Source: an uncultured Eubacteriales bacterium
GTDB lineage: Bacteria > Bacillota > Clostridia > Oscillospirales > QAMX01
Assembly (NCBI GenBank): GCA_959600635.1
Contig: CAUGMN010000003.1
Location: forward strand, 6,527-70,526
DNA: 64,000 bases
Direction: 5' to 3'
In this document: positions 1,053-58,564 of the stretch, piece after piece
How the letters are laid out: each line of letters starts with the position of its first letter
Numbering within the stretch: the first letter of the stretch is position 1
Translations under genes and position numbers: made by a program
The notes under the pieces: model-generated
The model's database searches: none
Seen by the model: only the letters and a program-made list of their open reading frames with translations
Told to the model about the DNA's origin: nothing

Positions 1053-1057
1053 AAAGG

Positions 1058-1086
1058 TTGCCGCCCGGCAGATTTTGTGCTATACT
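1058..1086 (+). promoter_or_regulatory. sigma-A type promoter candidate for the 1136 gene
   Basis: TTGCCG - 17 nt - TATACT with TGc extended -10, about 50 nt upstream of the ATG. Confidence 0.5.
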
Positions 1087-1135
1087 GTCATGGTGTTCCG
1101 GCGGATTGATACGATGATTCAGAGGAGGAAGCGGC

Positions 1136-1801: not shown

Positions 1802-1835
1802 GCGTGCGTGCGGCTTCACAGCCAAGCGGCGGTCA

Positions 1836-3257: not shown

Positions 3258-3323
3258 ATCCGGCTGTTTCTCCCCGTCTGCCCGCGTTTTCTTTGGCTTT
3301 CAGCCGCTTTGCTAAGCGTATAC

Positions 3324-3352
3324 ATTATAGCATAAGCGCCGTACCGGAGCAA
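3324..3352 (-). promoter_or_regulatory. promoter candidate for the MATE gene
   Basis: Minus strand reads TTGCTC - 17 nt - TATAAT with TGc extended -10, about 65 nt upstream of the ATG at 3257. Confidence 0.55.
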
Positions 3353-3577
3353 GCCCGTTTTTGAGAATCGCCGACGCTTCCCGCCGTCACAGCCGTCGGT
3401 TTCAGGCTGGAAATCCCGCCGAACCGTGCGGTTGGGCGGCACGTTTTGTAAAATTCAAAAACGCTTTGTCGTGCCCGCATGGGCGGCCGGCACGTTTTAT
3501 GAAATTCCAAAAACGTTTCATTGTGCCCGTTCGGGCGACCGGTACGTTTCATGAAATTCAAAAAACGATCCGTTCTA

Positions 3578-3615
3578 CCCGTAGGGGCGCACCTATGTGT
3601 GCGCCCGCCCCGCCG
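3578..3615. repeat. REP-like GC-rich palindromic element (copy 1)
   Basis: CCCGTAGGGGCGCACCTATGTGTGCGCCCGCCCCGCCG; the hairpin arms are GGGCGCAC/GTGCGCCC. A degenerate inverted copy lies at 3636-3665. Confidence 0.8.
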
Positions 3616-3862
3616 CCGCGCCGAACCCTTTTCGCGGGCGGACACGCAGGTCCGCCCCTACGGATGATGGGAACGTCATATAAAACCCCAAAAACGTTTG
3701 ATTCCGCCGTACGGGTGGTTGGCGCGTTTCACGGAATGCCAAAAAAACGTTCCATTGTGCCCGTGCAAATGACCGACACGTTTCGAAAAATCCCAAAAAC
3801 GTTCCATTGTGCCCGTGCGGGTGGTTGGAACGTTTCATAGAATCAGAAAACGATCCGTTCTA

Positions 3863-43902: not shown

Positions 43903-44446
43903 TTTGTCACACTCCTTTTTCTTTGTGGGCAGGCCATCTATATAGACGGAAACGCTCGTGAGGGACAAGGATTTCCGAATCTATCTGGAAGCCTCCGCGC
44001 TCGGAAAGCGGAAGCGCTTTCGTCGGATTCAACAAATACGGCAGCGCAACGGCAAAATATATTTTATATTATTATATAGCAATACCGCTGTTTGTCAAGG
44101 CCGATTTCATATAATTTATCAGCCGCCCAGATATGGCCTTCTTCGGGCATTCAGCGCATGTGCCAAGCCGGTTTTTGCCGCATGCAGCGGTCTTTTTGAG
44201 GCGGTTAAAGTTCTGCTCACCGTGTGCAGTAAGCCTTTGATTTCTATTAATCACCGTTTTTTTGAATCCATTCGATTTTTCTGAAAACATTTCTGTTTTC
44301 AAAACTCCTCAATGATAAAGGGCGTCTGCGGTCGCTTCGACCGTTTTTGGGGATTTCGTGTCCCGCTATTTCTTTTTTTCGGGCCTTTTTTCCGGTTTTT
44401 GTCCCTATCCGCCGCGGTTGATATATGAACGCCGCCGGATTCGGCG

Positions 44447-44586: not shown

Positions 44587-45645
44587 TCATTTCAGCTCGT
44601 CAAAACCGATTTTTGTGATCTTGACGCCGCTGAGCGGCACGCCGGTATCGCCGCCGTGACAGTACGCGAGCAGCACGCCGTCGGCCCGCGGCAGAATGGC
44701 GGTATAGCAGCAGCCCGCCGACGGATCGTCTTCGATCGCCAGAGGCGGCCCAAAGGAAGCGCCGTTATCCGGCGAAAGCGCGCAGACGAGCGGCGTGCGC
44801 CCCCATGTGCGGGCCGTGTCGCGCCCCGTAAACTCGGGGATCGGGTTAAACACCGCCAACAGCCGCCCGTCGGTCAGACGCTTGACCGACATCGGCGCGC
44901 ACGGCGAGGTAAAAAACCGAGACGGCTGCGGCGGCGACCAGGTTTCGCCGCGGTCGCGGGAGAAAAAGACGAACTGGCAGCCGTGCCCCGTGCGGCCCCA
45001 GCCCCAGAGCGTCTCGCCGTCCAGCGCGCAGGCGCCCGACTCCTGCAAGCCCGTCCAGCTCTTTTCAAACGGCAGGCGGAGAATGGAGCGCGATTCGCGC
45101 CATGTCGCGCCGTCGTCGTCGGAGAGCAAAAAATGCCCTTCTCCGACCGCCGACACCGAATCCAATTCGCCGGCCGCGTGCAGGTTGGCGGGCATGACCA
45201 GCCGCCCGCACGCCAGCCGCACGACCCGGTCGTTGTTGACGACATAATAGCCGCCGCCCTCGATACAGCGGGCCGGCTCGCTCCACGTCTCCCCCTCGTC
45301 GCGCGAGCGCGCCAGCTCCGGGATACAGTCGGCGGGCGGCGTTTTGCGCAGAAAAACCATGCCGAGGTCGCCGTTTTGCAGCCGCAGCAGCGAAACGCTC
45401 ATGATGTTGGCGTCGCCGGAGCGCTTTTTCAGCAGCGTGCGCGGGCTGCCGAAATGCTCTCCGCCGTCTTCGGAGACGATCGCGGCAATCTCAGCCTCGC
45501 AGTGGTCGCCCCAGCCGCCGCCGGTGTAGCGCGTGTAGGCGAATAAAATCCGCCCGTCGCGCAGCTCGATAAACGCGCCCTCGCTGTTGCGCGGGTTGCC
45601 CGCCTGCGGGCGCAGAAAACAAATCTCGCGGCCGACCTTACGCAT
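44587..45645 (-). CDS. BNR/Asp-box beta-propeller, sialidase-like glycosidase
   Basis: Four Asp boxes (SRDEGETW, SDDDGATW, SRDRGETW, SPDNGASF). The start is trimmed to the ATG at 45645, which has an AAGGAG RBS. No signal peptide. Confidence 0.82.
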   Translation of the reverse strand: MRKVGREICFLRPQAGNPRNSEGAFIELRDGRILFAYTRYTGGGWGDHCEAEIAAIVSEDGGEHFGSPRTLLKKRSGDANIMSVSLLRLQNGDLGMVFLRKTPPADCIPELARSRDEGETWSEPARCIEGGGYYVVNNDRVVRLACGRLVMPANLHAAGELDSVSAVGEGHFLLSDDDGATWRESRSILRLPFEKSWTGLQESGACALDGETLWGWGRTGHGCQFVFFSRDRGETWSPPQPSRFFTSPCAPMSVKRLTDGRLLAVFNPIPEFTGRDTARTWGRTPLVCALSPDNGASFGPPLAIEDDPSAGCCYTAILPRADGVLLAYCHGGDTGVPLSGVKITKIGFDELK

Positions 45646-45931
45646 AAAAACGCTCCTTTTGTGCCCAATTTCGGATTTTTTCAACTTTTTTAACGCCAAA
45701 TGCGCAGAACGTCCCGCAGGGTTCTGCGCATTTGGGCTGTTGAATCGCGTATGGAAATCTAATCCCCCGCTGAAAAAAACGCTATGATAACCGCACAATG
45801 CCCCGTTCTCCGGCGGCCGCAAGCGCCCCATCTTTCCGGCTGAGAGCCTCGACAGCGCCAAGATGCGCTGAAAATGCGGTTTCTTTCGGGCGCGGCCGCG
45901 GCCCCTGTGCGCGGGGCTTTTCCCGGCCGGC

Positions 45932-47209
45932 TCAATAGACGTATTTTGAGGTATAGGTATATTTGCTGGAAAAATCGCCGATGTCCGGGTTGCCGGCGGC
46001 GTAGGTCGGATCCATGTGGTTCCACTTGGATCCGTCGAAGTAAATGACGCTGTTGACCCATCCCTGCCCCTCGACGTAAACGTTGATCCACGCGTGGTAC
46101 GCCGTGCCGCAGTAACCGACGACGAGCTTGGTCGGTATACCGAGGCTGCGGAGCATCGCCGACATCACTGCGGCATAGTCAAAGCAGATCCCCTTCTTTT
46201 TGACCAGAACGTCGTCGATGTTCGGCAGATAGCCGCTCTGCACCGTCGCGGCGCGGTCATAGTCATACGCGATGTTCTTGATGACATACTCGTAGACCGC
46301 GTCGACTTTTTCGAGCGTTCCGGATTTTCCCGCGGTCAGCTGCGCGGCGAGCTTGACGGCCTGACTGTTCGAGGTAAAATTGACGTATTGGTTGGCGTGC
46401 AGGAAAGCGGCGAAGGCGTTTTTCATTTTCACCGAGACCGTGGCCTTATACGCGGTCGAATACTTCGTCCCCGCTGTGTTCTGATACACGCCGATGGTAT
46501 AGCTCCCGTCGCCGTCCGAGAACGGGAAGACCTCGTAATTGCCCTTGTTGTTGAGATTATAGTTATAAGTCGTCCCGCTCGGGCCGGTGATCAGCACCTT
46601 GATGCGCGTATCGACGCCGCCGGTGTATTTGACCATCACATACCCCTCGGCCTTGTTCGATGCGTCTACGACCGCTTTCTCGTTGGAGTACACCTCGCTT
46701 CCGCCCGCCGTGCCGTCGCCGGGATCGATCGGCGTGTTGCCGAGAAACGGCGTCTCCATCGACATCGCCGCAGTCGTCGCAGGCGCGGCGGTGGTCTGCG
46801 GCGGCGCGGTCGTCGCGGGCGCAGCGGTGGTTCGCGGCGGCGCGGTCGTCGCGGGCGCGGCAGTGGTCGGCGGCGGCGTGGTCGCCGCGAGCGGCGTCGA
46901 GGTTTCATCCGTGATCTGCACCGGCGGCTCGGTCGTCACAGCCGTTTCGGCGGGCGACGTCTCTTCCGGGGTCGTCAGCGGCGGTTCTTCGGTCTGCGAG
47001 CCGGCCGTTTCGTCCGGCTTTCCGTCGTTGGGCGTCGTCGCCGGATCGCCCGCAGCGGGCGAGGAAACCGTCGTCTGCGCCGTGGTTTCCGGCTTATCTC
47101 CGGAAAAAGAGCAGGCCGCAAGCAGCGCGGCGGCCAAAGCCGCGAGCGCCGTCAAAGCGATCCGATTCCACGAAAGCGTTCTGCGTTTGGAAATTTCCTG
47201 GTTTTTCAT
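45932..47209 (-). CDS. transglutaminase-like (Cys-His-Asp) lipoprotein with a T/P/A-rich linker
   Basis: Lipobox LAALAAALLAAC; core KKGICFDYAAVMSAMLRSLGIP...GTAYHAWINVY...HMDPT. Confidence 0.85.
   Translation of the reverse strand: MKNQEISKRRTLSWNRIALTALAALAAALLAACSFSGDKPETTAQTTVSSPAAGDPATTPNDGKPDETAGSQTEEPPLTTPEETSPAETAVTTEPPVQITDETSTPLAATTPPPTTAAPATTAPPRTTAAPATTAPPQTTAAPATTAAMSMETPFLGNTPIDPGDGTAGGSEVYSNEKAVVDASNKAEGYVMVKYTGGVDTRIKVLITGPSGTTYNYNLNNKGNYEVFPFSDGDGSYTIGVYQNTAGTKYSTAYKATVSVKMKNAFAAFLHANQYVNFTSNSQAVKLAAQLTAGKSGTLEKVDAVYEYVIKNIAYDYDRAATVQSGYLPNIDDVLVKKKGICFDYAAVMSAMLRSLGIPTKLVVGYCGTAYHAWINVYVEGQGWVNSVIYFDGSKWNHMDPTYAAGNPDIGDFSSKYTYTSKYVY
46765..46875. repeat. 36-bp in-frame tandem repeat (about 3 copies) encoding TTAAPATTAPPx
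   Basis: GCGGCGGCGCGGTCGTCGCGGGCGC recurs at 46798 and 46834 (period 36 nt) inside the linker of the transglutaminase-like gene. Confidence 0.8.
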
Positions 47210-47254
47210 GGGTTCCTCCCTCCGCCCGCTTCAAAGCCACGGCGGGCGGATATT

Positions 47255-48319
47255 TTACGATATGCGGATTTTTTTCTGCAACAGTTCGAGGTTCACAGCG
47301 TGACGCAGCGCGGCGCTTTCGCTGATGATTCCGTTTTTATACAGCGCCAGAAGGCTCGCGTCCATCGTCGCCATGCCCTCCGCCGCCGAAGAGGCGATCA
47401 GCGTGTCGAGCTGGTGGATTTTGGCGTCGCGGATCATATTCCGCACGGCGTTGTTGGCGTGGAGAATCTCAAAAGCCGGATAAACCGCGCCGTCAAGCGT
47501 CGGGATCAGCTGCTGGGAAAACACCGATTGCAGCAGCATGGAGAGCTGAATGCGGATCTGCGGCTGCTGATTGGGCGGAAACACGTCGATGATGCGGTCG
47601 ATGGTGCTGGCCGCGCCGACAGTGTGCAGCGTCGAGATGACGAGATGCCCCGTCTCCGCCGCCGTCATCGCGGTCCTGATCGTCTCATAGTCGCGCATCT
47701 CGCCGACGAAGATGACGTCGGGCGCCTGCCGCAGCGCCGCCCGCAGCGCCGAGACGTAATTCTCGGTGTCCAGCTCGATCTCGCGCTGGCTGACAATGCT
47801 TTTTTTGTTGCGGTGCAGGTATTCAATCGGGTCTTCGAGCGTGATGATGTGGCCGCTGCGCGTCTCGTTAATGCGGTCGATGAGACAGGCGAGCGTCGTC
47901 GATTTGCCGCTTCCGGCCGAGCCGGTGACGAGGATCAGGCCCTTGGTGCGCTCGGCCGCGTCCATGACCGTTTCGGGGATATGCAGGGCGCGGTAATCGG
48001 GGATGCCGAACGAGACGACGCGGATGACCGCCGCCAGCGAGCTGCGCTGCTTATAGGCGCTGACGCGGAAACGCGAGAGCTTCGGGATCGAAAAGGAAAA
48101 ATCGTCGTCTCCTGTGCGCAGAAAGCGCTCCATATCGCGGCCGGCAAGCTGGTAGAGCTTTGTAATCAGCGCCTCCGAGCGGTCGGGCAGGATGCGCTCC
48201 TCCCCCTGCGGGGAAATCCGTCCGTTCTGCTTGAACGCCACGGGAAAACCGGCGACGATGAAAATATCCGACGCGCCGCTCCGGACGGCGCCGTCCAGCA
48301 TGGTCTGAATCTCGGTCAT
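47255..48319 (-). CDS. pilT: PilT-family type IV pilus (retraction-type) ATPase
   Basis: Walker A GSAGSGKSTT, Walker B DVIFVGEMRD, His box TGHLVISTLHT, and the PilT-specific AIRNLIRE-like motif AVRNMIRDAKIHQL; 354 aa. Confidence 0.88.
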   Translation of the reverse strand: MTEIQTMLDGAVRSGASDIFIVAGFPVAFKQNGRISPQGEERILPDRSEALITKLYQLAGRDMERFLRTGDDDFSFSIPKLSRFRVSAYKQRSSLAAVIRVVSFGIPDYRALHIPETVMDAAERTKGLILVTGSAGSGKSTTLACLIDRINETRSGHIITLEDPIEYLHRNKKSIVSQREIELDTENYVSALRAALRQAPDVIFVGEMRDYETIRTAMTAAETGHLVISTLHTVGAASTIDRIIDVFPPNQQPQIRIQLSMLLQSVFSQQLIPTLDGAVYPAFEILHANNAVRNMIRDAKIHQLDTLIASSAAEGMATMDASLLALYKNGIISESAALRHAVNLELLQKKIRIS

Positions 48320-48416
48320 AAAATGGTAACTCCTCTCTGAGCGCCGCGCCCGCCGTTTCGCCGGCGCACGCGCAGATCGATTTTTCTGCGGGGAACCGTA
48401 TCGCTTCGCCGTTTTT

Positions 48417-48854
48417 TCATTCGCCGTCCCAGAGCTTGATATCCGTATCCGGCGACCATGTGCCCGCGTCCGTCACGCGCAGGGCATCCACGGCAATCGC
48501 CCCGCCGCGCATGACGGCGCGGACGGAGAGCAGGCGTTTTTCGTCGATTGGCTCCGCCCATGTCATCACAACCGCGCCGTCCCGCTCCTCTGAGACCACG
48601 GCCTCGGGCAGCAATCTGCGAAACGTCTCCGGCTCGCGCGGTTGGATCGCCGCGACCGCGGCGAGCGTTTCATAGGCGCGCGCCTCGGCGGCGTAATACG
48701 CGGCCGTCGAATCGGCGGCGGCCTGCGCCAGCTTTTTCTCAGAATTCGCCGAAAGCAGCGTCAGGACCGCGAAGATCGTCATACACAGCACGGCGAACAC
48801 CGTCACAATCGTCGCGCTGCCGACATGCAGCTTCATCTCCCGTTTTTCCGTCAT
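48417..48854 (-). CDS. small N-terminally anchored protein (PilX/ComGG-like minor pseudopilin candidate)
   Basis: ATGA overlap with the upstream gene. MTEKREMKLHVGSATIVTVFAVLCMTIFAVLTLL gives a single N-terminal TM helix. The start is trimmed from the ORF-track 49028. Confidence 0.6.
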   Translation of the reverse strand: MTEKREMKLHVGSATIVTVFAVLCMTIFAVLTLLSANSEKKLAQAAADSTAAYYAAEARAYETLAAVAAIQPREPETFRRLLPEAVVSEERDGAVVMTWAEPIDEKRLLSVRAVMRGGAIAVDALRVTDAGTWSPDTDIKLWDGE

Positions 48855-49321
48855 CGCGCCGCCTCCCCCGTATAGCCGGACGCGGTGATCTCCATCAGCG
48901 GCCGCTCTTCGCCGCAGGCCGTCACGGAAACCGCCGCCGTCCGAACCGGAGACGCCGCCGCGCCGGCCGAGGGCCGCGCCGACAGCGTCAGCACATAGGC
49001 CGCTTCGGCCGCGCCGGTTATCCGCCACTGTTCGTCATAATAAATCCGCAGCGCAGCGCCGTTTTCATCCATTTCCGCGCCGAGCACAGCGGCGCAGCGC
49101 GCCAGATCGCCCGACTCGGCCTTAAAGCATTCGGCCGCCGACTGCGCCGACAGCGCAGCGCCGTTCAGCGCCGTACTCTCCGCCGTCATGCGCTTTGCCG
49201 ACGCAAACAGGCTCAGACACACGGCGGCGCAAAGCGAAAACACGCCGACGGCGACAATCAGCTCGATTAAAAACAGCGTCGTTTTGGAGCGTCCCGATCT
49301 CCTCATACTATGTCCTCTCAT
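48851..49321 (-). CDS. pseudopilin-like protein with a near-canonical prepilin N-terminus
   Basis: RSKTT/LFLIELIVAVGVFSL has Glu at +5 and a hydrophobic helix but Thr instead of Gly at -1. An alternative ATG lies at 49306. Confidence 0.65.
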   Translation of the reverse strand: MRGHSMRRSGRSKTTLFLIELIVAVGVFSLCAAVCLSLFASAKRMTAESTALNGAALSAQSAAECFKAESGDLARCAAVLGAEMDENGAALRIYYDEQWRITGAAEAAYVLTLSARPSAGAAASPVRTAAVSVTACGEERPLMEITASGYTGEAAR

Positions 49322-49799
49322 CCTGCGCGCCGACCGTTGCGACGAGCGCGGCCGCGCGGCCGCCGTTGCCCGTTACCGAAATCTCCAACAGGCCGTCGCC
49401 CGCCATTTGAAACGAAAGCCCCTCCGCAGGCGCGACGGCCTCGCCGTCCTCCGGCGAAAAGCGCAGCCCCGCCTCGGCGTACAGCTCGCAGAGGCTGCCG
49501 TCATGGCAGTAGATCGTCGTGACAAAGTCGATCCCGTCCAGCGTTTCGGTCATTTCCAGCGCCGCGCCGTCGCCGAACTGCGTGATACGGATCATGCCGC
49601 TGCCGTTATAGGCGCGCACGCGCGCCGTCAGATAGGCCAGCGTCGTCCGCTCTCCGAAGCGCGCGTCGATCTCGTCTACGGTGCGGCGGTAGACGTTGGC
49701 GCCCATCATCAGGCACAGCAGCACGCAGCCGGCGTAGACGCAGAAAAGGATCAGCGCCGCCGCCAAATCGACTGACGCCGTGTTTTGCGTTTTTCTCAC
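49308..49799 (-). CDS. small N-terminally anchored membrane protein of the pilus-like cluster
   Basis: GTG at 49799 with a GAAGGGGG RBS is preferred (ORF track: TTG at 49823, no RBS). Contains the TM helix VDLAAALILFCVYAGCVLLCLMMG. Confidence 0.55.
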   Translation of the reverse strand: MRKTQNTASVDLAAALILFCVYAGCVLLCLMMGANVYRRTVDEIDARFGERTTLAYLTARVRAYNGSGMIRITQFGDGAALEMTETLDGIDFVTTIYCHDGSLCELYAEAGLRFSPEDGEAVAPAEGLSFQMAGDGLLEISVTGNGGRAAALVATVGAQDERT

Positions 49800-49856
49800 T
49801 GCCGCCGCGCCCCCTTCACACAATGTCGACTGCCGCTGTACATGCCCCGCCGCTTG

Positions 49857-50165
49857 TCACCGTTTTAAAATCGTCACGTCCGGCATAATGTTGGAGGCAA
49901 ATACGCTGTACATCACGGCGTATTTTTCCTCGTCGACGCGCACGCCGTAATGCCGCTTCAAATATTCATAGCTCTCCGGATAGCTGCCCTCGACGGCGTA
50001 GCAAGTGACGACGGCGCGCCGGATGCTGTCATAGGCGGCGTTCAGCTCCGCCTCGGCGTTTTTCTCCGCCGCGTTCGACACGCCGACCAGCACGCAGGCC
50101 GCGACGACGGCAAACAGCAGCAGCGAGAGCAGGTTCTGCCAAAAGGTTCCGAATGCCTTTTTCAT
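49857..50165 (-). CDS. small N-terminally anchored protein, possible pilin-like subunit
   Basis: MKKAFG/TFWQNLLSLLLFAVVAACVLVGV has a basic N-terminus, then Gly, then a hydrophobic helix (class III signal-like, no Glu+5). GGAGGCGGAG RBS; starts 22 nt after the GspF-like stop. Confidence 0.6.
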   Translation of the reverse strand: MKKAFGTFWQNLLSLLLFAVVAACVLVGVSNAAEKNAEAELNAAYDSIRRAVVTCYAVEGSYPESYEYLKRHYGVRVDEEKYAVMYSVFASNIMPDVTILKR

Positions 50166-50187
50166 AGCCCTTTTCTCCGCCTCCGCC

Positions 50188-51213
50188 TCAAATCGCCGAC
50201 ATGATCGACATCAGCGGAATCATCACCGAAATCAAAATCGCCGCGACGAGCACGGTCATCACAATCACGATCGCCGGCTCAACGCGGGAGAGCGCCGCCT
50301 CGGTCTCCTCGGCGACCTCCTGCTCGCTGCGCCGCGCGATTTCCTCCATCACCGTATCGCCGCTGCCGGCGCGGATCCCGACGGCCAGCATCTGCGCGTT
50401 GAGCGGCGACAGCACGCCGCTCTTCGTCACCGCGTCGCCGAAGCTTTGCCCTTCGCCGCACAGGGACCGGCAGCGCCGGATCCTCGCGCGCATTTTCGCG
50501 TTGGCGGTCACGCGTTCGGCCATTTCCAGCGATTCCTCCATGTCGAGCCCGCCCGCCATCGTCATCGCCATTGCCGAGGCGAACTGCGCCGAGGCGACCG
50601 TCTTGCCGAGGTGGAAGGAAAACGTCAGGGAGCCGAATTTCCCGCGCACGGCCGGGACGCGTGCCAGAACCAGACCTGCGGCGAGCAGCCCCGCGAAGAT
50701 CAGCGCCGGGATTTCCCAGTTTCGGCTCAGCCCCTCGCCGAAGCGCAGAATCGAAACCGCCACCGGCGACATCGAGCCGCCGAGCTGCGCGAACACGTCC
50801 GCAAAGATCGGCATGACCTTTGTCACCAGCACGACGACGACAAACAGCATCATCACCAAAAGGATCGCCGGATAGACCACGGCGTTCCTCACCGTTTTGG
50901 AAATGCTCTCGCGGCGGTCATAGTAGCCGGAAAGCGCGAGCGTCACCGCTTCGAGCTTGCCGGTCTTTTCGCCGATATCGATCATGTCGAGCATATATTT
51001 CGGAAAAATCCCCGCGGCCGCGGCCGCGTCGGAAAAGCGCTCGCCCAGTTCAAGCTGCCCGCAGACGCCGGTCAGCGCGGCTTTGACCCGTTTGTCCCGC
51101 TCGTTTTCGGCGATCAGCGAAACGCCCTCGGCCAGCGGGATGCCCGCTTTTAAAATCAGCGAAAGCTCGTAGCAAAAGCCGGAGATATACGCCGGCGAGA
51201 GTGTCTTTTTCAT
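50188..51213 (-). CDS. type II secretion system F family platform protein (PilC/GspF/ComGB-like)
   Basis: 341 aa with two T2SSF-type repeats (KYMLDMIDIGEKTGKLE / PLNAQMLAVGIRAGSGD) and 3 TM segments. Confidence 0.85.
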   Translation of the reverse strand: MKKTLSPAYISGFCYELSLILKAGIPLAEGVSLIAENERDKRVKAALTGVCGQLELGERFSDAAAAAGIFPKYMLDMIDIGEKTGKLEAVTLALSGYYDRRESISKTVRNAVVYPAILLVMMLFVVVVLVTKVMPIFADVFAQLGGSMSPVAVSILRFGEGLSRNWEIPALIFAGLLAAGLVLARVPAVRGKFGSLTFSFHLGKTVASAQFASAMAMTMAGGLDMEESLEMAERVTANAKMRARIRRCRSLCGEGQSFGDAVTKSGVLSPLNAQMLAVGIRAGSGDTVMEEIARRSEQEVAEETEAALSRVEPAIVIVMTVLVAAILISVMIPLMSIMSAI

Positions 51214-51302
51214 AACGCGCTCCCTTTATCTTTCGGTTTCACGGGTTTAGGATCCCCTTTTCCAACCCTGACGGCCGCTTTGATTCCGCTCTCCCAGCCG
51301 GT

Positions 51303-52175
51303 CTATCCTTCGATCCGCTTGGCGTGAACGACAAAGCGGATCTGTTTGCCGGTATTGGTGCAGGTCGAAAGGGTGACGATCTCGTCGCCCGCGCCGACCG
51401 TTACGCCGGTATTGTAGGCGCTGCGCATGAGGATTTTGCTCAGATACGCCTCATACGCCGCATCGTCCTCAAAGGCGAACGTATAGGTGTCGCTGTCAGT
51501 CGTGACCTGATAGGCCGCAAAGATCTGGTATTTCTTCGTGCCCGCTTCGGTCATGATATAAAAATACGGGTTTGCGTCGTAATAGGCGCGGCTTTTGTAT
51601 TTGACGAGCGTGGCGAACATCTTGCCGTTTCCGGCGTTGTGCCCGTAGATGACGGCGTTGCGCCCGCCAAGCTCCGAGCGGTAGTCGAGAAAAATGCTGC
51701 CGAGCTTGCTGGATTTGTGGTTGTAGGTGGTTCGGAGGTATTCTTCGTTATCCTCGCCTTTTAAAAGCGGGTAGTTGATCGTCGTGCCCGACTGCCAGAT
51801 CCAGCCGCCGATGTCGGGGTTGACCGCTCGGAGCGCCGCCCAGTCCGGCGCAAAATCCGGCGCGGCCGGCGGCGGCGCGCTCGTCTCCGGCGGCGTCTCA
51901 GCCGTCTCCGGCTCCGATACCGTCCCGGACGGCGCGGTTCCGCCGCTTTCGTCTGTCTCCGTTTGCGGCGGCGCGGCAGTCGTATCCGGAGGCGAAGGTT
52001 CCTCACCGCTACCGGCGGGGGTGGTATAGATCAGAAACTGCTCCGCCGCGTCGTCGTAAATTTTTTCGTTTTCGCTGTATGTCGTCCAAATGCCGATCAG
52101 CTTCACCGCCGAGTAGCAAAATACCGCGGCGAACAGCGTCATCAGCGTCAGCCGAATGATTTTTCCCTTGTCCAT
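51303..52175 (-). CDS. class B sortase
   Basis: N-terminal TM anchor, P/T/E-rich linker, NPDIGGWIW...INYPLLKG, VIYGHN and TLSTC catalytic motifs typical of SrtB. Confidence 0.85.
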   Translation of the reverse strand: MDKGKIIRLTLMTLFAAVFCYSAVKLIGIWTTYSENEKIYDDAAEQFLIYTTPAGSGEEPSPPDTTAAPPQTETDESGGTAPSGTVSEPETAETPPETSAPPPAAPDFAPDWAALRAVNPDIGGWIWQSGTTINYPLLKGEDNEEYLRTTYNHKSSKLGSIFLDYRSELGGRNAVIYGHNAGNGKMFATLVKYKSRAYYDANPYFYIMTEAGTKKYQIFAAYQVTTDSDTYTFAFEDDAAYEAYLSKILMRSAYNTGVTVGAGDEIVTLSTCTNTGKQIRFVVHAKRIEG

Positions 52176-52339
52176 GCTTCTCCAATCAAATCCGCTGCAA
52201 GTCGGGCCGACCTGCCGGAAAAAGCCGTTTCTGTCGTTCCGCGTCCACGAGGGTTCGCAGGCTTGATCAACTCTATTATAGCATATTCAGCCCCAAAATG
52301 CTATCCGCCGCATTGAACCGTTTCCGAACTTTTCCACAG

Positions 52340-52378
52340 AAAAAACGAATCGGCGGGGAACATTTCGCTTCCCCGCCG
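52340..52378 (-). terminator. rho-independent terminator after the adhesin gene
   Basis: CGGCGGGGAA / TTCCCCGCCG stem followed by ATTCGTTTTTT on the minus strand. Confidence 0.75.
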
Positions 52379-52406
52379 GTTCGTTTATCTCAGCGCTTCG
52401 CGCAGA

Positions 52407-55400
52407 TTACTTTTTGCCTTTCTTTCTGCCGCGGAAGGTCAGAACCACAAGACCCATGGCAGAGAGAACCGCGGTCGCCGCAAACAGCGCGATGTTGGAA
52501 GAATCGCTCGTGTCGGGGATATCTCCGCCCGGATCGAGCGGAACGTCGGGATCGTCGATGTCGATCTCCGGTTCCGTCGTCGTCTCGGCCGGCTCGGTCA
52601 TCGGAGGCTCAGTCGTCGTTTCCGGCGGATCGAGCGGCACCGAGGGCTCGGTGATCTCGATCTCCGGCTCGGTCGTCTCCGGCGGCTCGGTGGTTTCCGG
52701 CTCCGTCACCGGCGGCGTGGTCACCGGCGGATCCAGTCTCAGCTCGAAGTAGATGTCCAGAACATGGAGCGCGTTCGCGTTCGTCAGCTTCATCTCGGTT
52801 GCGCCGCCGACAAACGCATAGGTTTCGCCGTTATAATCGGTGTGGTTATCCGGATTGGCGGAAACGATCTGGTTCTTGTATCCGTTATACGGGCCGACGC
52901 TCTTGCTGCCGGAATCGATTACGGTGTCGCCCATATACTTGGTGTAGTGGTAAACGATCTTGTAGAAGTAGTCGTCCTCATCCACCGGCGGGGGCGTCGG
53001 CGTCTCGGTCAAACGCTCGTAGCGGAGCGTGATCGTGTAGCTGCCGTTCTCTTCGCTCAGGGTGATGCTTGCCGGGTCAGCGGAAACATAGGCGTAGGTA
53101 TTGTCGCCGTAGGTCAGCTGCTTGGCAATATCGGAGCCTGTAATCGTCGTGCCGAGCGGCGCGCTTCCGTTGCCGCTCGTCTCGCCGTCCTTCACAGGTT
53201 CACCGCCGTCGGTGGACGTGTAGTACTCGTGAATGATCGTGTAGGAGACGCTCGGAATCGTCTTCGTCGCGTAGTACACCTTGATAACCGTGTTGTTGTC
53301 GTGAATCGTCGCCGGCAGGCCGTTGACGCTCGTTCTCACATAGCCCGCTTTCAGCGCGTCGGAATCCGCAACGTTTTCGACCTCCGTGCCGTAGGCGATG
53401 TTGGTGAAGGAATCCGTATCAAACGGGGTATTTTCTCCGACGTAGTAGTGCTCAACCGTGTAGCTCAGGTCGCCGCGCAGGTCGTAGTAGACCTCAATGA
53501 CCGTGCTGTTGTCGTGAATCGTCGCCGGCAGGCCGTTGACGTTCGTTCTCACATAGCCCGCTTTCAGCGCGTCGGAATCCGCAACGTTTTCGACCTTCGT
53601 GCCGTAGCTGATGTTAGCGAAAGAATCCGTATCAAACGGGGTATTTTCTCCAACATAGTAGTGCTTAACCGTGTAGCTCAGGTCGCCGCGCAGGTCGTAG
53701 TAGACCTCAATGACCGTGCTGTTGTCTTGAATCGTCGCCGGCAGGCCGTTGACGTCCGTTCTCACATAACCCGCTTTCAGCGCGTCGGAATCCGCAACCT
53801 CGTTTACCGGCGTGTCGTAGGCGATGTTGGTGAAGGAATCCGTATCAAACGGGGTCTCTTCTCCGACGTAGTAGTGCTTAACCGTGTAGCTCAGGTCGCC
53901 GCGCAGGTTGTAGTACACCTTGATAACCGTGCTGTTGTCGTGAATCGTCGCCGGCAGACCGTTGACGCTCGTTCTCACATAGCCCGCTTTCAGCGCGTCG
54001 GAATCCGCAACCTCTTTTACCTTCGTGTCGTAGGCGATGTTGGTGAAGGAATCCGTATCAAACGGGGTCTCTTCTCCAACGTAGTAGTGTTCAACCGTGT
54101 AGCTCAAATTGGTCGGCTGATTGGCCCGGTAGTACAGTTTCAGCGTCAGGCTGGCGCTGTCAAACGCAATCTCCGTCACGCTGCCCGCAACCGACGCATC
54201 ATAGGCAAAGCCTTCAACCGTTTTCACATATGGGGCGGCAAGCTTCGTCTCGCCGTATTTGATGACGCCGCCCTCGTCGGGATAGCTCGTCAGGTTCTGT
54301 TCATACGCTCCGGTGTTGTAGCCCGTCTCAAACCAGTGCTCGACTGTGAAATTCTTGTCCGCAGGCTGATTGGCCCGGTAGTACAGTTTCAACGTCAGGC
54401 TCGCGCTGTCAAACGCAATCTCCGTCACGCTGCCCGCAACCGACGCGTCATAGGCAAAGCCTTCAACCGTTTTCACATACGAGGCGGCAAGCTTCGTCTC
54501 GCCGTATTTGATGACGCCGCCCTCGTCGGGATAGCTCGTCAGGTTCTGTTCATACGCTCCGGTGTTGTAGCCCGTCTCAAACCAGTGCTCGACTGTGAAA
54601 TTCTTTTGCAGCAGCTTGTTTTCCACGCCGTTGGCCGGAACCGTAGAGTTCTTGACTTCGCCGTAAACGACGTCGAAGGTGTAGGAAGCCGCCTGGCTCT
54701 GATCGTAACCCGCGGCGACCGTTTCCGTCAGCGTGAAGCTGTGGCCGCTCGGGATCCCCGTGAAGCTGACCTGCGTTTCGCCGCCGCTGAGCGTCACGGT
54801 TTTCGACCAGCTGCCGCTCGTCAGCGTGAACGCCGTCCCGTCGAGAGAAACGCTGTTTTCGCCGAGTTTGGCAAAGCTGAGGCTGCCGAGGTAGCCCTTA
54901 ACGGTCGGGACTTTGAGGTTTGTCGAATACAGCGTCGGCTGCAACTGGCCGTTCACGGTCAGCATATAAGTCAGCGATGTGGTCTTGTTGGCGGCGTAAG
55001 CCGTTTCCGCCGTAAAGCCCTCCGCCTTGGTATCCAGCGTGACCGAGTAGGTCATCGTATAGGTGTACCAGCCGTCGACCGGGCCGGTGCGGGAGATATC
55101 ATTTTTCAAATCCCAAATCAGGGTATCGGTATCGGTATTGAACTTGCGGACCGCGTCGCTGTCGGCCGCCGTGGCGTTGGTCACTCTGGCAACCGATGCG
55201 TTGGCGCCGAAATCGATATAATCGCCCATCGGATCGGTAAGGATCCACGCCTGCGCCTGGTTGACGATGATCTGCGCGATGCTCTGCAAGCCGCTGAAAA
55301 TATCGTCGCCCGCGGCGATGCTCTGCGTCGCAAAGGAGCTCAGCCACGCGTCGATGCTCTGGCCGTTGACGGTTTTGCCGTTGATATCGCTGCTTTTATA

Positions 55401-56471
55401 GGAAACGGTGTACAGCTTGGCGCCCTTGTCCTTGATCTGCTTGGGGAGGTTGTCGCCGTGCCGGACATGATTATTGCCTACGTTTCTTGTTTGGGTGCAG
55501 TAGATGTCATGGTAATCGTCGTGCTCAGCTTCGTTGCCGCCGCCCCGGCTGCCGGAGATAAAATTAACGTCGCTGGGCTGTCCGTCTACATGGTACGTCG
55601 GTACGCCGTCGGTCATCATGACGACATACTTGTTCCCGATCGCAGAGACGAGCGTCTCGCTCAGGAGGTTGTTGGCGAGGCGGAGGCCGGCCTCGATATT
55701 CGTGCCGCCGCCGTCCGTCGTTCTCTCACCGCCGTGCGGGCCGGTATAGGTGTTTATCGTCGTCCCCGTCTGGTGATTATGTCTCTTGGCCTGCTTGTCA
55801 TCTTGCGTCGTATAATCGCAACCCTCATAAGTGCATTGATAATGGCCGCCCAAATAACCGTCGCCGAGATAGCCGTCTGTCCACTCCATGAAATTCTCAT
55901 AGACGGCTTCCTCATGCGTATGTGTGCCGGTCGTGTTGCAGGCGCCGTTGCCGGAACGGTAGGCAAAACCATTTTGAACCGCGTCAATTCCGTTGTTGAC
56001 GGCAGTCAAGTTGCCGTTTGCATCCGTCCAGTAGAGGGTGGTTTTGCCGTTAGAGCCAAACTCGACGACCGCGACATAGCGCAGCCCGTCGCCCGCCTCC
56101 TTGACGAACTCCGCGACAAAGTTTTTCGCCGCCGTCTTGGCGTTCGCCATATCGGTGCTGCTCATGCTGTTCGAAGCGTCCAGCACAAGAACGACCGCCG
56201 CGTCCTTGGACACGACCTGCGTCTGGACGTCCTCCTTGGTTTTTGCTGTGAGAGTAATCTCAAAGGTATTCTCTCCGGTCTGCTCGATCGTCTTGGCGTG
56301 CTGGACCTTTCCGTCAGCGGTGGTCTGCCATTCGCCGTTGGAGACGATCTGGTTTTTCCCCGTCGGTTCTCCTGCCGCAATGATGCCGCCGGTCAAAACC
56401 GGGGTCAGCACCATAACGACCGCGAGGAAAAACGAAAGCGTACGCTTCCAGGGGGTGTTCAAATTCTTCAT
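52407..56471 (-). CDS. 1354-aa surface adhesin: signal peptide, vWA domain, repeat modules, P/T/E stalk, C-terminal sorting-signal-like anchor
   Basis: MKNLNTPWKRTLSFFLAVVMVLTPVLTG signal; MIDAS VLVLDASNSMS; 2x83-aa and 4-5x71-aa (MucBP-like YTVxHYY...VYY) repeats. The C-terminus is IPDTSDSSN + hydrophobic helix + RGRKKGKK. Confidence 0.9.
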   Translation of the reverse strand: MKNLNTPWKRTLSFFLAVVMVLTPVLTGGIIAAGEPTGKNQIVSNGEWQTTADGKVQHAKTIEQTGENTFEITLTAKTKEDVQTQVVSKDAAVVLVLDASNSMSSTDMANAKTAAKNFVAEFVKEAGDGLRYVAVVEFGSNGKTTLYWTDANGNLTAVNNGIDAVQNGFAYRSGNGACNTTGTHTHEEAVYENFMEWTDGYLGDGYLGGHYQCTYEGCDYTTQDDKQAKRHNHQTGTTINTYTGPHGGERTTDGGGTNIEAGLRLANNLLSETLVSAIGNKYVVMMTDGVPTYHVDGQPSDVNFISGSRGGGNEAEHDDYHDIYCTQTRNVGNNHVRHGDNLPKQIKDKGAKLYTVSYKSSDINGKTVNGQSIDAWLSSFATQSIAAGDDIFSGLQSIAQIIVNQAQAWILTDPMGDYIDFGANASVARVTNATAADSDAVRKFNTDTDTLIWDLKNDISRTGPVDGWYTYTMTYSVTLDTKAEGFTAETAYAANKTTSLTYMLTVNGQLQPTLYSTNLKVPTVKGYLGSLSFAKLGENSVSLDGTAFTLTSGSWSKTVTLSGGETQVSFTGIPSGHSFTLTETVAAGYDQSQAASYTFDVVYGEVKNSTVPANGVENKLLQKNFTVEHWFETGYNTGAYEQNLTSYPDEGGVIKYGETKLAASYVKTVEGFAYDASVAGSVTEIAFDSASLTLKLYYRANQPADKNFTVEHWFETGYNTGAYEQNLTSYPDEGGVIKYGETKLAAPYVKTVEGFAYDASVAGSVTEIAFDSASLTLKLYYRANQPTNLSYTVEHYYVGEETPFDTDSFTNIAYDTKVKEVADSDALKAGYVRTSVNGLPATIHDNSTVIKVYYNLRGDLSYTVKHYYVGEETPFDTDSFTNIAYDTPVNEVADSDALKAGYVRTDVNGLPATIQDNSTVIEVYYDLRGDLSYTVKHYYVGENTPFDTDSFANISYGTKVENVADSDALKAGYVRTNVNGLPATIHDNSTVIEVYYDLRGDLSYTVEHYYVGENTPFDTDSFTNIAYGTEVENVADSDALKAGYVRTSVNGLPATIHDNNTVIKVYYATKTIPSVSYTIIHEYYTSTDGGEPVKDGETSGNGSAPLGTTITGSDIAKQLTYGDNTYAYVSADPASITLSEENGSYTITLRYERLTETPTPPPVDEDDYFYKIVYHYTKYMGDTVIDSGSKSVGPYNGYKNQIVSANPDNHTDYNGETYAFVGGATEMKLTNANALHVLDIYFELRLDPPVTTPPVTEPETTEPPETTEPEIEITEPSVPLDPPETTTEPPMTEPAETTTEPEIDIDDPDVPLDPGGDIPDTSDSSNIALFAATAVLSAMGLVVLTFRGRKKGKK
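53264..54115. repeat. four tandem 213-bp (71-aa) repeats inside the adhesin gene, plus a fifth divergent copy downstream
   Basis: CGTAGTAGTGCT(C/T)AACCGTG recurs at 53441, 53654, 53867 and 54080 (period exactly 213 nt). Confidence 0.9.
54117..54614. repeat. two near-identical tandem 249-bp (83-aa) repeats inside the adhesin gene
   Basis: CTGATTGGCCCGGTAGTACAGTTTCA starts at 54117 and 54366; the two copies differ at only a few positions. Confidence 0.9.
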
Positions 56472-56655
56472 TGCCAACGTCCTTTCTTTTCGCTTTGCTT
56501 GATATCGCTCTGACAAAGGACGAATTTTGGCTGCCGGACTGCCGTCGCCTTTCGGCCTTAGGCTCCTGAGCTTTGCGTCCCGCAGTTTCCCGCGGTTTGC
56601 CGTTTCAGTATTCGACTGTCATTGAAACGTTTTGATGTCTGCGGTGTTTTTTTTG

Positions 56656-57147
56656 CTACTCTTCCTTGATACTGCTTTCGTCGAGCGCGCTGTCGATCAG
56701 TTTCAGCAGCTCCAGCGCGCTTCGGAACCGCTGCGTCTTGTTTTTCTCCGCCCAGACGACGGAGCCCTGCCACGTTGCGTTTTGCCGGTACTGTACATGA
56801 ACCACAAAAGTAGCCTTGTCGCCCCGCTGGCTTGTGACCTCGTTTTCGCTCATAAGCTTTGTTCTCTCCCTTACGGCCGGCCGCGGCGTTTTTTCCTCCT
56901 GCTTTCTGCCGAACGTCCTACTCTCTGTGGATGCCTGCGGATACCGCGTCTCGTCAAAGATTCCGTCCGCTCTGAGCAGCAGCTCTCCAATCTCCGAAAA
57001 ACAGACCGGCTCGCCCGCGTAACAGTGATACAGTCTGTAACTCACGCCGTTTTCCGCGCCGTCAACACAGATACAAAGGATATTCGGTGCAACCCTTCCT
57101 ATCCTTCTCTGTATCAAGCTCTCATCACCTCTCACGCGCCGTTTCAT
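56656..57147 (-). CDS. conserved hypothetical protein (Clostridia family with C-terminal F(V/A)V.V.YRQNATWQG...RSALELLKLIDSAL)
   Basis: 163-aa ORF. The ATG at 57147 lies only ~14 nt from the -10 box, so the mRNA would be near-leaderless; alternatively, translation starts at the TTG at 57117, which follows an AGAGGTGA RBS. Confidence 0.65.
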   Translation of the reverse strand: MKRRVRGDESLIQRRIGRVAPNILCICVDGAENGVSYRLYHCYAGEPVCFSEIGELLLRADGIFDETRYPQASTESRTFGRKQEEKTPRPAVRERTKLMSENEVTSQRGDKATFVVHVQYRQNATWQGSVVWAEKNKTQRFRSALELLKLIDSALDESSIKEE

Positions 57148-57160
57148 ATCGTATGATACA

Positions 57161-57207
57161 ATTATACTACGCGCGCCGTTACACGAGCGTTACATAAACG
57201 CATTACA
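57161..57207 (-). promoter_or_regulatory. TATAAT -10 box preceded by three direct TGTAA(T/C)G heptamers (SARP-type activator site candidate)
   Basis: Minus strand reads TGTAATG-N6-TGTAACG-N4-TGTAACG-N10-TATAAT, with repeat starts 13 and 11 nt apart and no -35 hexamer. Confidence 0.5.
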
Positions 57208-57255
57208 ACACGAGAAACATATGCCAATTTTGACCTTTTGATGTAATTTATTCCA

Positions 57256-58491
57256 TCACCATCTGACGGTCCCGATCGTCTTGCCCTCGCTGGGGCCGGA
57301 CGCTGAAATCATCTTAAAGCGCATACGCACGCCGCGCGGACGGCAGTTTTCCCGGAAAATCCGCTCGACGCGCGTCGAAACGATCGAGCAGTTCTCCTGG
57401 CTGATGCCGATCAGCAGCACCAGAAAACGCCCCGGCGACAGGCAGGTGTACATGTCGCCGCGGCGCAGCGCGCCTTTGAGCGAAGCGGAAGCCGCGTCCG
57501 AAGCGGCGCGGAGCTTGTCTCCCTCCTCCAGCGGCCGGCCGGAAAGGTCGGTCAGCGTACAGAGCATCAGGTAGACCGACTGCCCGCTCCGCTCGACGAT
57601 GCGGATCACATAGCGGTAGCTCTCGGTAAACGTCAGGTAGTCGCAGAAAAACGCGCCGCGGGTTTCGCCCTCTTCGTCGAGGAGCTTTTTGACGCTGTCG
57701 ATCGAGACGTCGTGATCCGGGATCTGCTCGGCGATTCTGGCGTGCAGCGCGATCATCTGGTCGCTGGGCTTTAAGCCCAGCTCCGTGTAATACGTATCCG
57801 TCACCGATTCAAACGCCGCGAGCGCCTCTCTTGGGCGGCGCAGATCGATCAGGGCGGCAATGCGCATCAGGTGCAGGCTCTCGTCATACGGATAGATCGC
57901 GCTCGCCGTCGTGGAGATCGCATAGATCTTTTCCAAATCGCCGGCCGTTCGCAGAGCCGCCGCCGCGTCTTCGATACAGCCGAGATAGAGGTTTTTCAGG
58001 CGCGCCGACTCGACCGCAACCCAATCCTCGGCGAGAAAATTGGGCAAAAGCTCGCCCTTATAGAGTTCCAGCGCGTCGAGGCGGTGATTCAGCGCCGTCT
58101 CCGCGTCGCCCGCGGCCGCGGCCGCCGCGGCTTCATCGAGCAGCGCCTCAAAACGGCGGACGTCCGTATCGACCGGGATCTCCCCGTTCCAGCCGCACAT
58201 GCCGTTTTTGCTGGTGATATACGTCTCATCCGGCAGCCCCGACGAAACCAGCAGTTTCCGGAGCCGGTGCAGCGTTACTCGGAACGTGTTCGACGGATCC
58301 CCGCATTCGTCGTCGCTGTACAGCATGTCGTACAGCTCTTCCTTATGAAAAGATTTTCCCTGATAAAAAATTAAAAATTGCAGCAGGCCGACCACGCGGC
58401 TGCCCCGATTTTGCCACAGCATCAACGGTTTTCCGTTCATCTGCATGGAAAAACCGCCGAACATCGCGGCCGCCAGCGCCGTATCCTCCAT
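57256..58491 (-). CDS. SARP-type winged-helix + BTAD regulator with a degenerate GGDEF-like C-terminal domain
   Basis: FGGFSMQMNGKPLMLWQNRGSRVVGLLQFLIF...TFRVTLHRLRKLL (OmpR/SARP wHTH), then TPR-like BTAD, then a C-terminal RRGDMYTCLSPGRFLVLLIG where GGDEF would sit. ATG at 58491 with a GGGAGAG RBS is preferred over the ORF-track 58521. Confidence 0.8.
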   Translation of the reverse strand: MEDTALAAAMFGGFSMQMNGKPLMLWQNRGSRVVGLLQFLIFYQGKSFHKEELYDMLYSDDECGDPSNTFRVTLHRLRKLLVSSGLPDETYITSKNGMCGWNGEIPVDTDVRRFEALLDEAAAAAAAGDAETALNHRLDALELYKGELLPNFLAEDWVAVESARLKNLYLGCIEDAAAALRTAGDLEKIYAISTTASAIYPYDESLHLMRIAALIDLRRPREALAAFESVTDTYYTELGLKPSDQMIALHARIAEQIPDHDVSIDSVKKLLDEEGETRGAFFCDYLTFTESYRYVIRIVERSGQSVYLMLCTLTDLSGRPLEEGDKLRAASDAASASLKGALRRGDMYTCLSPGRFLVLLIGISQENCSIVSTRVERIFRENCRPRGVRMRFKMISASGPSEGKTIGTVRW

Positions 58492-58535
58492 AAAAATCTC
58501 TCCCGTCATGGAAACATTCAAATTATCTCATTTAT

Positions 58536-58564
58536 ATTATACAAGATGAAATTTATAAACGCAA
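58536..58564 (-). promoter_or_regulatory. promoter candidate for the SARP-like regulator
   Basis: Minus strand reads TTGCGT - 17 nt - TATAAT. Confidence 0.55.

Follow-up and report, generated by a model that had tools for sequence, protein, structure and literature searches.

A candidate minimal type IV filament machine of Clostridia with an obligatory transglutaminase-fold lipoprotein and repeatedly recruited sortases

Do sortase-dependent display and type IV-type surface assembly work together at a single bacterial locus? The question is raised by a 64,000-nucleotide (nt) stretch of DNA from an uncultured Eubacteriales bacterium (contig CAUGMN010000003.1; the whole stretch is called the window below), in which a sequence-only reading had listed eleven consecutive minus-strand genes at 45932–58564: a SARP-family regulator, a conserved protein behind heptamer repeats, a large vWA adhesin, a class B sortase, a GspF/PilC-like platform protein, four small pseudopilin-like proteins, a PilT-type ATPase and a transglutaminase-like lipoprotein. 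That inventory is borne out by the open reading frame (ORF) list and by domain searches of the window, in which all eleven ORFs are present. Comparative genomics shows a core that we interpret as a minimal type IV filament (T4F) machine of Clostridia, made up of the platform protein, a single PilT-family motor, four pilin-like proteins and an obligatory transglutaminase-fold lipoprotein; the sortase and the vWA adhesin appear as accessories, with the transglutaminase-like enzyme belonging to the core. Gene content and gene order make it probable that the sortase and type IV-type assembly routes cooperate at this locus. The searchable literature yielded no description of this gene set.

To place the locus among its relatives, the contigs of platform-protein homologues were located, and an alignment of these homologues was then run against one genome per GTDB species; 80 loci were fetched, and profiles of all eleven window proteins were searched against the six-frame ORFs of 86 loci, 82 of them non-redundant. 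The genes for the transglutaminase-like protein (G), the platform protein (F), small proteins 1–4 and the ATPase (T) stand together in essentially every non-truncated locus; taken singly, G is present in 81 of the 86 loci, each of the small proteins in 81 to 84, and T in 79. Their usual order, found in about 80 of the 86, is G-F-1-2-3-4-T, with G usually directly upstream of the platform gene, and in the window and its closest relatives G has moved behind T. The sequence-only reading had hinged on synteny in relatives, and the block of pilus-like and transglutaminase-like genes is near-invariant across clostridial families; the full order that it had listed, from sortase and vWA gene through the platform gene to the transglutaminase-like gene, is not conserved broadly and is specific to the window's close relatives.

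Carriers of the module include Oscillospiraceae, Acutalibacteraceae, Lachnospiraceae (Blautia producta, B. hominis, Dorea), Anaerotruncus, Marasmitruncus, Youxingia, Zongyangia, Defluviitaleaceae and metagenome-assembled genomes (MAGs) labelled Peptococcaceae. At least 568 relatives of the platform protein were found among GTDB species genomes, and the family of small protein 1 forms 1288 clusters at 50% identity in a library of 1.84 billion proteins. Two loci (L034 and L052) come from MAGs labelled Terriglobales / Candidatus Acidoferrum (Acidobacteriota), and their close similarity to clostridial loci suggests that these are mis-binned contigs.

Most Lachnospiraceae loci are without a sortase or adhesin gene, and many have genes for a GGDEF cyclase and an extracytoplasmic function (ECF)-type sigma factor upstream of G, an association that speaks for a regulated function in adhesion or at the surface. 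A membrane GGDEF diguanylate cyclase gene together with an ECF-type sigma gene was seen ahead of the core in L037, L039, L045, L048, L054, L060, L061, L066, L070 and L082. All-against-all clustering of the remaining ORFs in the loci, in search of more conserved neighbours, exposed a second type of sortase gene along with the GGDEF and ECF-sigma genes, and nothing further.

Two of the core proteins are readily assigned to type IV filament families, as had been proposed (all features below lie on the minus strand unless noted). The platform protein (50188–51213, 341 amino acids [aa]) is of the GspF/PilC/ComGB type, with two T2SSF domains (Pfam, 147.6 bits), and falls below the equivalog cut-offs of GspF, PilC and ComGB. 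The ATPase (47255–48319) is a hexameric ATPase of the PilT family that scores 418 bits against TIGR01420 (cut-off 319) and 154.7 bits against Pfam T2SSE; over its full length it is homologous to Aquifex PilT (2gsz, E = 2e-94), and it carries AVRNMIRD instead of AIRNLIRE. It is the only T2SSE-family ATPase at the locus, and all relatives likewise have one T2SSE-family match per locus. PilM, PilN and PilO genes were found neither in the window nor among the conserved neighbours in the loci.

The third large component, at 45932–47209, is a transglutaminase-like (Cys-His-Asp) protein (Transglut_core, 89.7 bits) with a lipobox-like sequence, LLAAC/S, in agreement with its earlier description as a lipoprotein, and with a Pro/Thr-rich repeat linker. 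Residues C342, H372 and D400 are 100% conserved in 79 homologues. Comparison with PDB structures aligned the core domain only, with TgpA (6g49) and 3isr at 22–25 bits. The near-universal presence of this protein and its invariant Cys-His-Asp triad argue that the predicted transglutaminase-fold enzyme is a core, active component of the module and no add-on. As side observations, its linker, TTAAPATTAPP(R/Q), is encoded by a 36-nt tandem repeat (3.5 copies) at 46769–46896, and two or three transglutaminase-like paralogues lie beside the module in L008, L022 and L087.

If the core assembles a filament, its subunits should be sought among the four small proteins, all of which the sequence-only reading had called pseudopilin-like. 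The description fits best for small protein 3 (48851–49306, 151 aa), which begins with the recognisable type IV pilin-like N-terminus SKTT/LFLIELIV. Its homologues share [K/R]-S-[S/G/A/T]/L-F-L-M-E-L-I-I, with Glu5 in 80 of 80 and a −1 residue that is not strictly Gly; profile comparison with the PDB retrieved type IV pilin N-termini with the Glu in register (E = 0.007–0.07), and Pfam N_methyl matched at E = 0.43 only. The remaining three resemble pilins in their predicted shape or through weak matches below threshold. Small protein 1 (49857–50165, 102 aa) has a long N-terminal helix and a small head in its AF2 model (pLDDT 91.5, helix at residues 2–59), and carries the invariant motif CYAxEGxYP...Y...N..P, the EGxYP part of which we take to be a trait of GspG/ComGC-type pilins; the class III signal motif is absent. 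A Foldseek search with this model gave nothing significant, its weak matches including type IV pilins. Small protein 2 (49308–49799, 163 aa) belongs to DUF4860 (Pfam, 84.3 bits) and is modelled as an N-terminal helix with an eight-stranded sheet (pLDDT 81.8, in an AF2 model built from only 6 sequences); the highest-probability Foldseek matches were the type IV-like pilin TTHA1219 of Thermus and the GspJ-type minor pseudopilins XcpW and EpsJ, all at E ≥ 0.1. Small protein 4 (48417–48854, 145 aa) has no Glu5 and has a Gly ahead of its hydrophobic segment that is invariant in 79 of 79 homologues; its match to Pfam Tad is borderline, at 22.3 bits, equal to the cut-off of 22.3, on the 203-aa ORF and a sub-threshold 20.9 bits on the shorter product, and it shows a weak TadE/G N-terminal resemblance and a PilX_N match at E = 0.24. 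Sequence profiles of small proteins 1 and 4 retrieved nothing meaningful from the PDB. The data are consistent with all four proteins being pilin-like, short of proving it; small protein 3 is plausibly the polymerising subunit, and small proteins 1, 2 and 4 are likely to be tip or priming subunits.

The composition of the core brings two other kinds of machine to mind. One is a competence-type, Com-like pilus for DNA uptake that merely neighbours surface-protein genes. A platform, an ATPase and a few pilins are also the minimal composition of the Com pilus in single-membrane bacteria (PMC10790768), the ComGA and ComGB models give weak matches here, and one database source names a homologue of small protein 1 ComGC. 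However, these matches fall far from their cut-offs (133.7 bits against 300 for ComGA, NF041000; 87 against 240 for ComGB, NF041012), while the ATPase clears that of the PilT family (418 against 319); the ComC peptidase is missing, no known Com pilin was matched in the PDB, and the conserved partners, namely the transglutaminase-like enzyme, sortases, adhesins and GGDEF or SARP regulators, point to adhesion, so that we regard a DNA-uptake pilus as very improbable.

The second is a pseudopilus that serves as a wall-crossing or secretion device, cycled by PilT in the manner of a type II secretion system (T2SS) piston and working with a transglutaminase-fold wall hydrolase to assist the passage of very large sortase substrates, or of the enzyme itself, to the surface. 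The four small proteins do resemble minor pilins, with no obvious abundant major pilin among them, and the DUF4860 matches to XcpW and EpsJ noted above lean the same way, as do the obligatory extracytoplasmic Cys-His-Asp enzyme and the very large size of the associated adhesins (1000–1900 aa). Yet no type II secretion system is known from bacteria with a single membrane, nascent wall material normally carries sortase substrates to the surface without such aid, and PilT-family motors are known for pilus retraction and extension, not secretion; a wall-crossing piston is in our view rather improbable.

How, then, is the sortase connected to this core? The window sortase (51303–52175) is of class B, as first proposed, at 181.1 bits against TIGR03064 (cut-off 153.75) with a Pfam Sortase match, and has an N-terminal membrane anchor followed by a Pro/Thr/Glu-rich linker; the catalytic motif TLSTC (TLxTC type) is present in the class B homologues that adjoin the core in relatives. 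The linker between anchor and catalytic domain, which is to our knowledge unusual for sortases, is similar to that in the transglutaminase-like lipoprotein. A sortase gene lies within 175 bp of a core gene in 34 of the 82 non-redundant loci, and none was found elsewhere in 916 kb of flanking DNA. The adjoining enzymes are of class B in 20 non-redundant loci and of the second, non-B type in 14; the latter, encoded directly upstream of G or between G and F, score 87–122 bits against Pfam Sortase and are D/E/C-like in that their best NCBIfam matches are to class D, E or C, with only the general sortase model passed. With S or Sx standing for the sortase gene, at least seven arrangement classes can be distinguished on the platform-protein tree (S(-)/G-F..T; ..T-S; G-S-F; S-G-F; adhesin-S-F..T-G; Sx-G-F; and G-Sx-F), which map to different clades, and L087 adds a further one, S(-)/regulator-G-G-F..T. 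The presence of at least two sortase lineages at many insertion points argues for selection for adjacency and not for one inherited accident, and we take these arrangements to show that sortases have been recruited to the pilus-like operon repeatedly and independently.

These same data bear on the possibility that we are looking at an adhesion island made of mechanistically independent parts, namely a pilus operon, the gene of a wall-anchored adhesin and that of a housekeeping sortase, brought together by co-regulation or co-transfer alone, with the sortase attaching the adhesin and other substrates to peptidoglycan. Sortase genes usually adjoin their substrates, so strict adjacency to pilus genes calls for a reason; here sortases of different lineages sit inside or against the core (G-S-F, S-G-F, T-S), also in loci that have no substrate gene in the surrounding 10 kb. 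In sortase-bearing loci without a vWA gene, only scattered substrate candidates were found nearby, for example in L077. That a sortase stays with the pilus operon even without a nearby substrate gene would be explained most simply if something in the core were its partner or acceptor.

In the window, the sortase does have a neighbouring candidate substrate. The vWA adhesin (52407–56471, 1354 aa from the ATG at 56471) is a predicted secreted protein with a signal peptide, VWA_2 and VWA domains (DASNSMS), a GBS104-like tip-pilin Ig domain and a Pro/Thr/Glu spacer (Pfam), and contains 83-aa repeats (two copies) and 71-aa repeats (four copies) that appear at the nucleotide level as tandem repeats of 249 nt (2 copies) and 213 nt (3.9 copies). 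The sorting-signal-like C-terminus ascribed to it was found: its tail runs ...DIPDTSDSSN, which holds the sorting motif IPDTS, followed by a 20-residue hydrophobic stretch and RGRKKGKK, and is the only such tail in the 64-kb window. Across loci, the sorting motif beside class B sortases is IPDTS (window) or PPYTG (L001), and beside non-B sortases LPKTG (L043) or LPKSG (L024); L015, a close relative of the window, has IPPYNG, and no sortase gene was detected in that locus. The change of motif with the class of the neighbouring sortase supports the view that the adhesin is a substrate of the adjacent enzyme.

Two oddities of the adhesin gene may be noted in passing. Its repeats are near-identical (53270–54605), and in L089, a metagenome contig of the same species, the same stretch (6100–6900) is collapsed and frame-shifted, probably through an assembly artefact or strain-level variation in repeat number. 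In addition, a 1249-aa ORF runs antisense to the adhesin (52764–56513, plus strand), and in L089 the gene caller split the adhesin and called a 725-aa antisense ORF; the Pfam matches in the minus-strand frame identify the adhesin frame as the real one.

The adhesin belongs to a cassette with two further genes, for a regulator and a protein of 163 aa. The regulator (57256–58509) is of the SARP family, with an N-terminal winged helix-turn-helix (Trans_reg_C, 23.8 bits, sub-threshold against a cut-off of 26.2), and a BTAD domain (83.5 bits) by Pfam, and with a C-terminal domain of about 150 aa. Neither this last domain nor the 163-aa protein gave anything credible in Pfam at E values up to 10. 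The consensus-like promoter attributed to the regulator has a perfect −10 (TATAAT, 58541–58536) and a 17-nt spacer, but its −35 (TTGCGT, 58564–58559) agrees at only 3 of 6 positions, and it was not listed by a consensus promoter scan. The 163-aa protein (56656–57147), predicted to be cytoplasmic, has no Pfam or NCBIfam match and is recognised through homologues in relatives by a strongly conserved C-terminal motif, QNATWQG...FRSALELLKLID, or QNA[TS]WQG..W......FRS.LE[LM]IKLMD across homologues. Such homologues occur in 15 of the 86 loci, always beside a BTAD gene and always in the company of a large adhesin; wherever the vWA profile matched nothing next to a 163-aa gene, its place is taken by an ORF for a very large surface protein (1355 to about 1900 aa). 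Regulator genes adjoin the core in 32 of the 86 loci and vWA homologues in 10, and the regulator, 163-aa protein and adhesin genes lie upstream or downstream of the core, co-directional or divergent, varying by locus.

Upstream of the 163-aa gene lie SARP-box-like direct heptamer repeats (57161–57206), as the earlier description had it: GTAATG, GTAACG and GTAACG at 57206–57177, spaced by 13 and 11 nt and followed by TATAAT. Paired heptamers 11 nt apart beside a −10 box are the classical SARP-box layout. Heptamers at 11-nt spacing with a −10-like box are found in the window and six other loci, always upstream of the 163-aa gene (TGTAACA in L001; GTTACTG in L029 and L035; GGTGACTG in L050, L063 and L072). 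The architecture is thus kept across relatives while the heptamer differs by clade (TGTAAC[GA], GTTACTG or GGTGACTG), which suggests that regulator and operator co-evolve. By itself the pattern is not rare, with at least one match in 32 of 100 shuffled sequences; its weight derives from the conservation of the architecture in relatives. The window contains one such site only, and no copy lies upstream of the adhesin or sortase genes. With this layout upstream of the 163-aa gene, the regulator most likely activates the 163-aa/adhesin unit; the gene content of the adhesin cassette is shown by the comparison, and its regulation is what we infer from it.

Downstream of the adhesin gene, the reported terminator was confirmed at 52378–52351 as an intrinsic-terminator-like hairpin with a 10-bp stem, 8 of its pairs G-C, and a T tract; the spacer between it and the sortase gene contains a TATAAT. 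The picture of one co-linear hybrid set is therefore only partly upheld: the sortase abuts the core in the 34 of 82 loci noted above and the trio recurs, but sortase and vWA adhesin are facultative, and the adhesin stands behind a terminator.

What do these observations say in answer to the opening question? The synteny of the block in relatives and the recurrent adjacency of sortases support a functional link between the pilus-like machine and sortase display. The reading that we prefer is that a core T4F machine, a recruited sortase and a regulated adhesin cassette act at the same site, and we judge it to be evenly poised between right and wrong. Several findings weigh against it. No PilB-type ATPase and no prepilin peptidase (a multi-pass protein with GxGD[VIALFM][KR]) was found in the window or in any of the 86 loci with their flanks, nor any Peptidase_A24 in Pfam-annotated neighbourhoods of relatives, so that the filament stays putative; a prepilin peptidase gene may yet lie in another part of the genome. 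A class III signal motif is missing from three of the small proteins, and the Foldseek matches of both AF2 models to pilins or pseudopilins are not statistically significant (E ≥ 0.03). About 59% of loci are without an adjacent sortase and most without an adjacent adhesin, and many loci are related by descent, so that the counts exceed the number of independent events. The core proteins were free of sorting signals in the 82–84 homologues of each, and no small-protein residue (a possible acceptor Lys, Gln or the like) tracks the presence of a sortase. Finally, the terminator separates the adhesin from the sortase–pilus operon. The terminator with its separate promoter-like element, the confinement of the SARP box to the 163-aa/adhesin unit, the majority of loci with neither sortase nor adhesin beside them, and core proteins free of sorting signals are also what speaks for the mechanistically independent adhesion island described above, which we consider doubtful but a serious possibility. 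As for the lack of a PilB-type motor, in the MSHA pilus of V. cholerae PilT can promote extension as well as retraction (PMC9815625), which makes a PilT-only filament machine conceivable by analogy.

Under the preferred reading, in which the three parts act at one site, events might run as follows. The SARP regulator would bind the 11-nt-spaced heptamers and turn on the 163-aa and vWA adhesin genes, and the adhesin, exported by the Sec pathway, would be retained through its C-terminal anchor, with the neighbouring class B sortase cleaving it at IPDTS. The PilT-type ATPase and the platform would drive a short filament, built from the pilin-like proteins, across the thick wall and would probably also pull it back; the transglutaminase-like enzyme, tethered on its long linker, would remodel or cross-link the surrounding wall or filament. 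With the sortase working at the same site, processed adhesins could be displayed on or beside the filament. The sortase's acceptor could be a wall precursor, as is usual, or a filament subunit, and the latter would explain why a sortase stays with the pilus operon in the absence of a nearby substrate gene. In a stronger version, the sortase would covalently load adhesins such as the vWA protein onto a subunit of the PilT-driven filament, besides or instead of a wall precursor, and the transglutaminase-fold enzyme would cross-link or trim the product; this version is speculative and, in our estimate, unlikely. The piston-and-tip-adhesin mechanism originally suggested is not supported as stated, given the core proteins' lack of sorting signals and the lack of a small-protein residue that follows the sortase.

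Likely true start positions in the window (58509 for the regulator, 49799 for the DUF4860 protein, 49306 for small protein 3 and 48854 for small protein 4) were taken from gene calls in the 99%-identical contig L089, whose nucleotide identity to the window is 98.6–99.5%. The module is flanked by infC-rpmI-rplT/polC on one side and by BNR-repeat (sialidase-like) and sugar-binding-protein genes on the other. The latter two, a BNR-repeat gene at 44587–45861 and a sugar-binding lipoprotein gene at 42460–43968, lie directly downstream of the module and are kept in L089, and they are not conserved in more distant relatives. In L001, a relative at 52% identity, two rve-family transposase genes bracket infC-rpmI-rplT just upstream of the module (1–3674); the window module occupies the same chromosomal position without these transposases.

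Should the proposed interpretation hold, three features of the module would be new to T4F biology. The machine would have a PilT-family protein as its sole motor, its locus encoding neither a PilB-type ATPase nor a prepilin peptidase; its obligatory extracytoplasmic transglutaminase-fold enzyme would bear on how single-membrane bacteria pass filaments through a thick wall; and its repeated, independent genetic link to sortases and sortase-anchored adhesins would join surface-assembly routes so far treated as separate. If covalent loading were true, it would make a genuine hybrid of the sortase-type and type IV-type paradigms of Gram-positive pili in abundant gut Clostridia. The module is common, its carriers including Blautia, Dorea, Anaerotruncus and many uncultured gut Oscillospiraceae and Lachnospiraceae, and may be a widespread gut colonisation device; cultured carriers exist in Blautia producta DSM 2950, Anaerotruncus massiliensis AT3, Marasmitruncus massiliensis and Youxingia wuxianensis NSJ-64.

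Among known systems, the Com pilus of single-membrane bacteria (ComGA-GG; Streptococcus sanguinis, Bacillus subtilis) shares with the core a single ATPase and a platform with two T2SSF domains (about 350 and 340 aa, respectively), and a handful of small pilins in one operon without genes for an alignment complex (PilMNO). It differs in that the ATPase here is of the PilT family and not ComGA, with the equivalog cut-offs of ComGA and ComGB unmet, in that there are four small proteins instead of five, only one of which has Glu5 and that one a −1 residue that is not strictly Gly, and in that the locus here has no prepilin peptidase, an obligatory transglutaminase-like lipoprotein, and associated sortase, adhesin and SARP or GGDEF regulators.

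Type IVa pili resemble the core in their PilT-family motor with an AIRNLIRE-like motif, their PilC-type platform and the four minor-pilin-like proteins, as found in a priming or tip complex; however, PilB, PilD and PilMNO are all missing from the locus here. Some type IVa pili carry vWA tip adhesins (PilY1/PilC, or the modular pilin PilB of S. sanguinis), and here too a vWA adhesin is genetically associated with the putative filament, but it is neither a pilin fusion nor a PilY1 homologue, being a predicted Sec-exported, sortase-anchored protein with a GBS104-type Ig domain. The Tad/Flp pilus was considered and set aside, with the TadA-family model at 43 bits against a cut-off of 373 and the borderline TadE/G match of small protein 4 as the only other trace. 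By its predicted gene content, the core differs from type IVa pili, Tad pili and T2SS in the absence of their defining parts.

With sortase-assembled pili (GBS104, RrgA, SpaC) the locus shares an adhesin of vWA and GBS104-like Ig domains, a C-terminal sorting signal and an adjacent sortase, whereas the window has no backbone pilin or class C pilin polymerase, its sortase is of class B, and the neighbouring pilus genes are type IV-type. The V. cholerae MSHA locus likewise has no prepilin peptidase of its own (Denise et al. 2019, PMC6668835), but MSHA belongs to double-membrane bacteria, has its own extension ATPase and a secretin, and is without a sortase or transglutaminase-like partner. The closest parallels to the transglutaminase-like enzyme itself are TgpA of P. 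aeruginosa (6g49) and 3isr, with the same catalytic core and Cys-His-Asp triad placed outside the cytoplasmic membrane; unlike these, the enzyme described here is a predicted lipoprotein, has a Pro/Thr linker and a middle domain rich in beta structure, and is fixed in a pilus-like operon.

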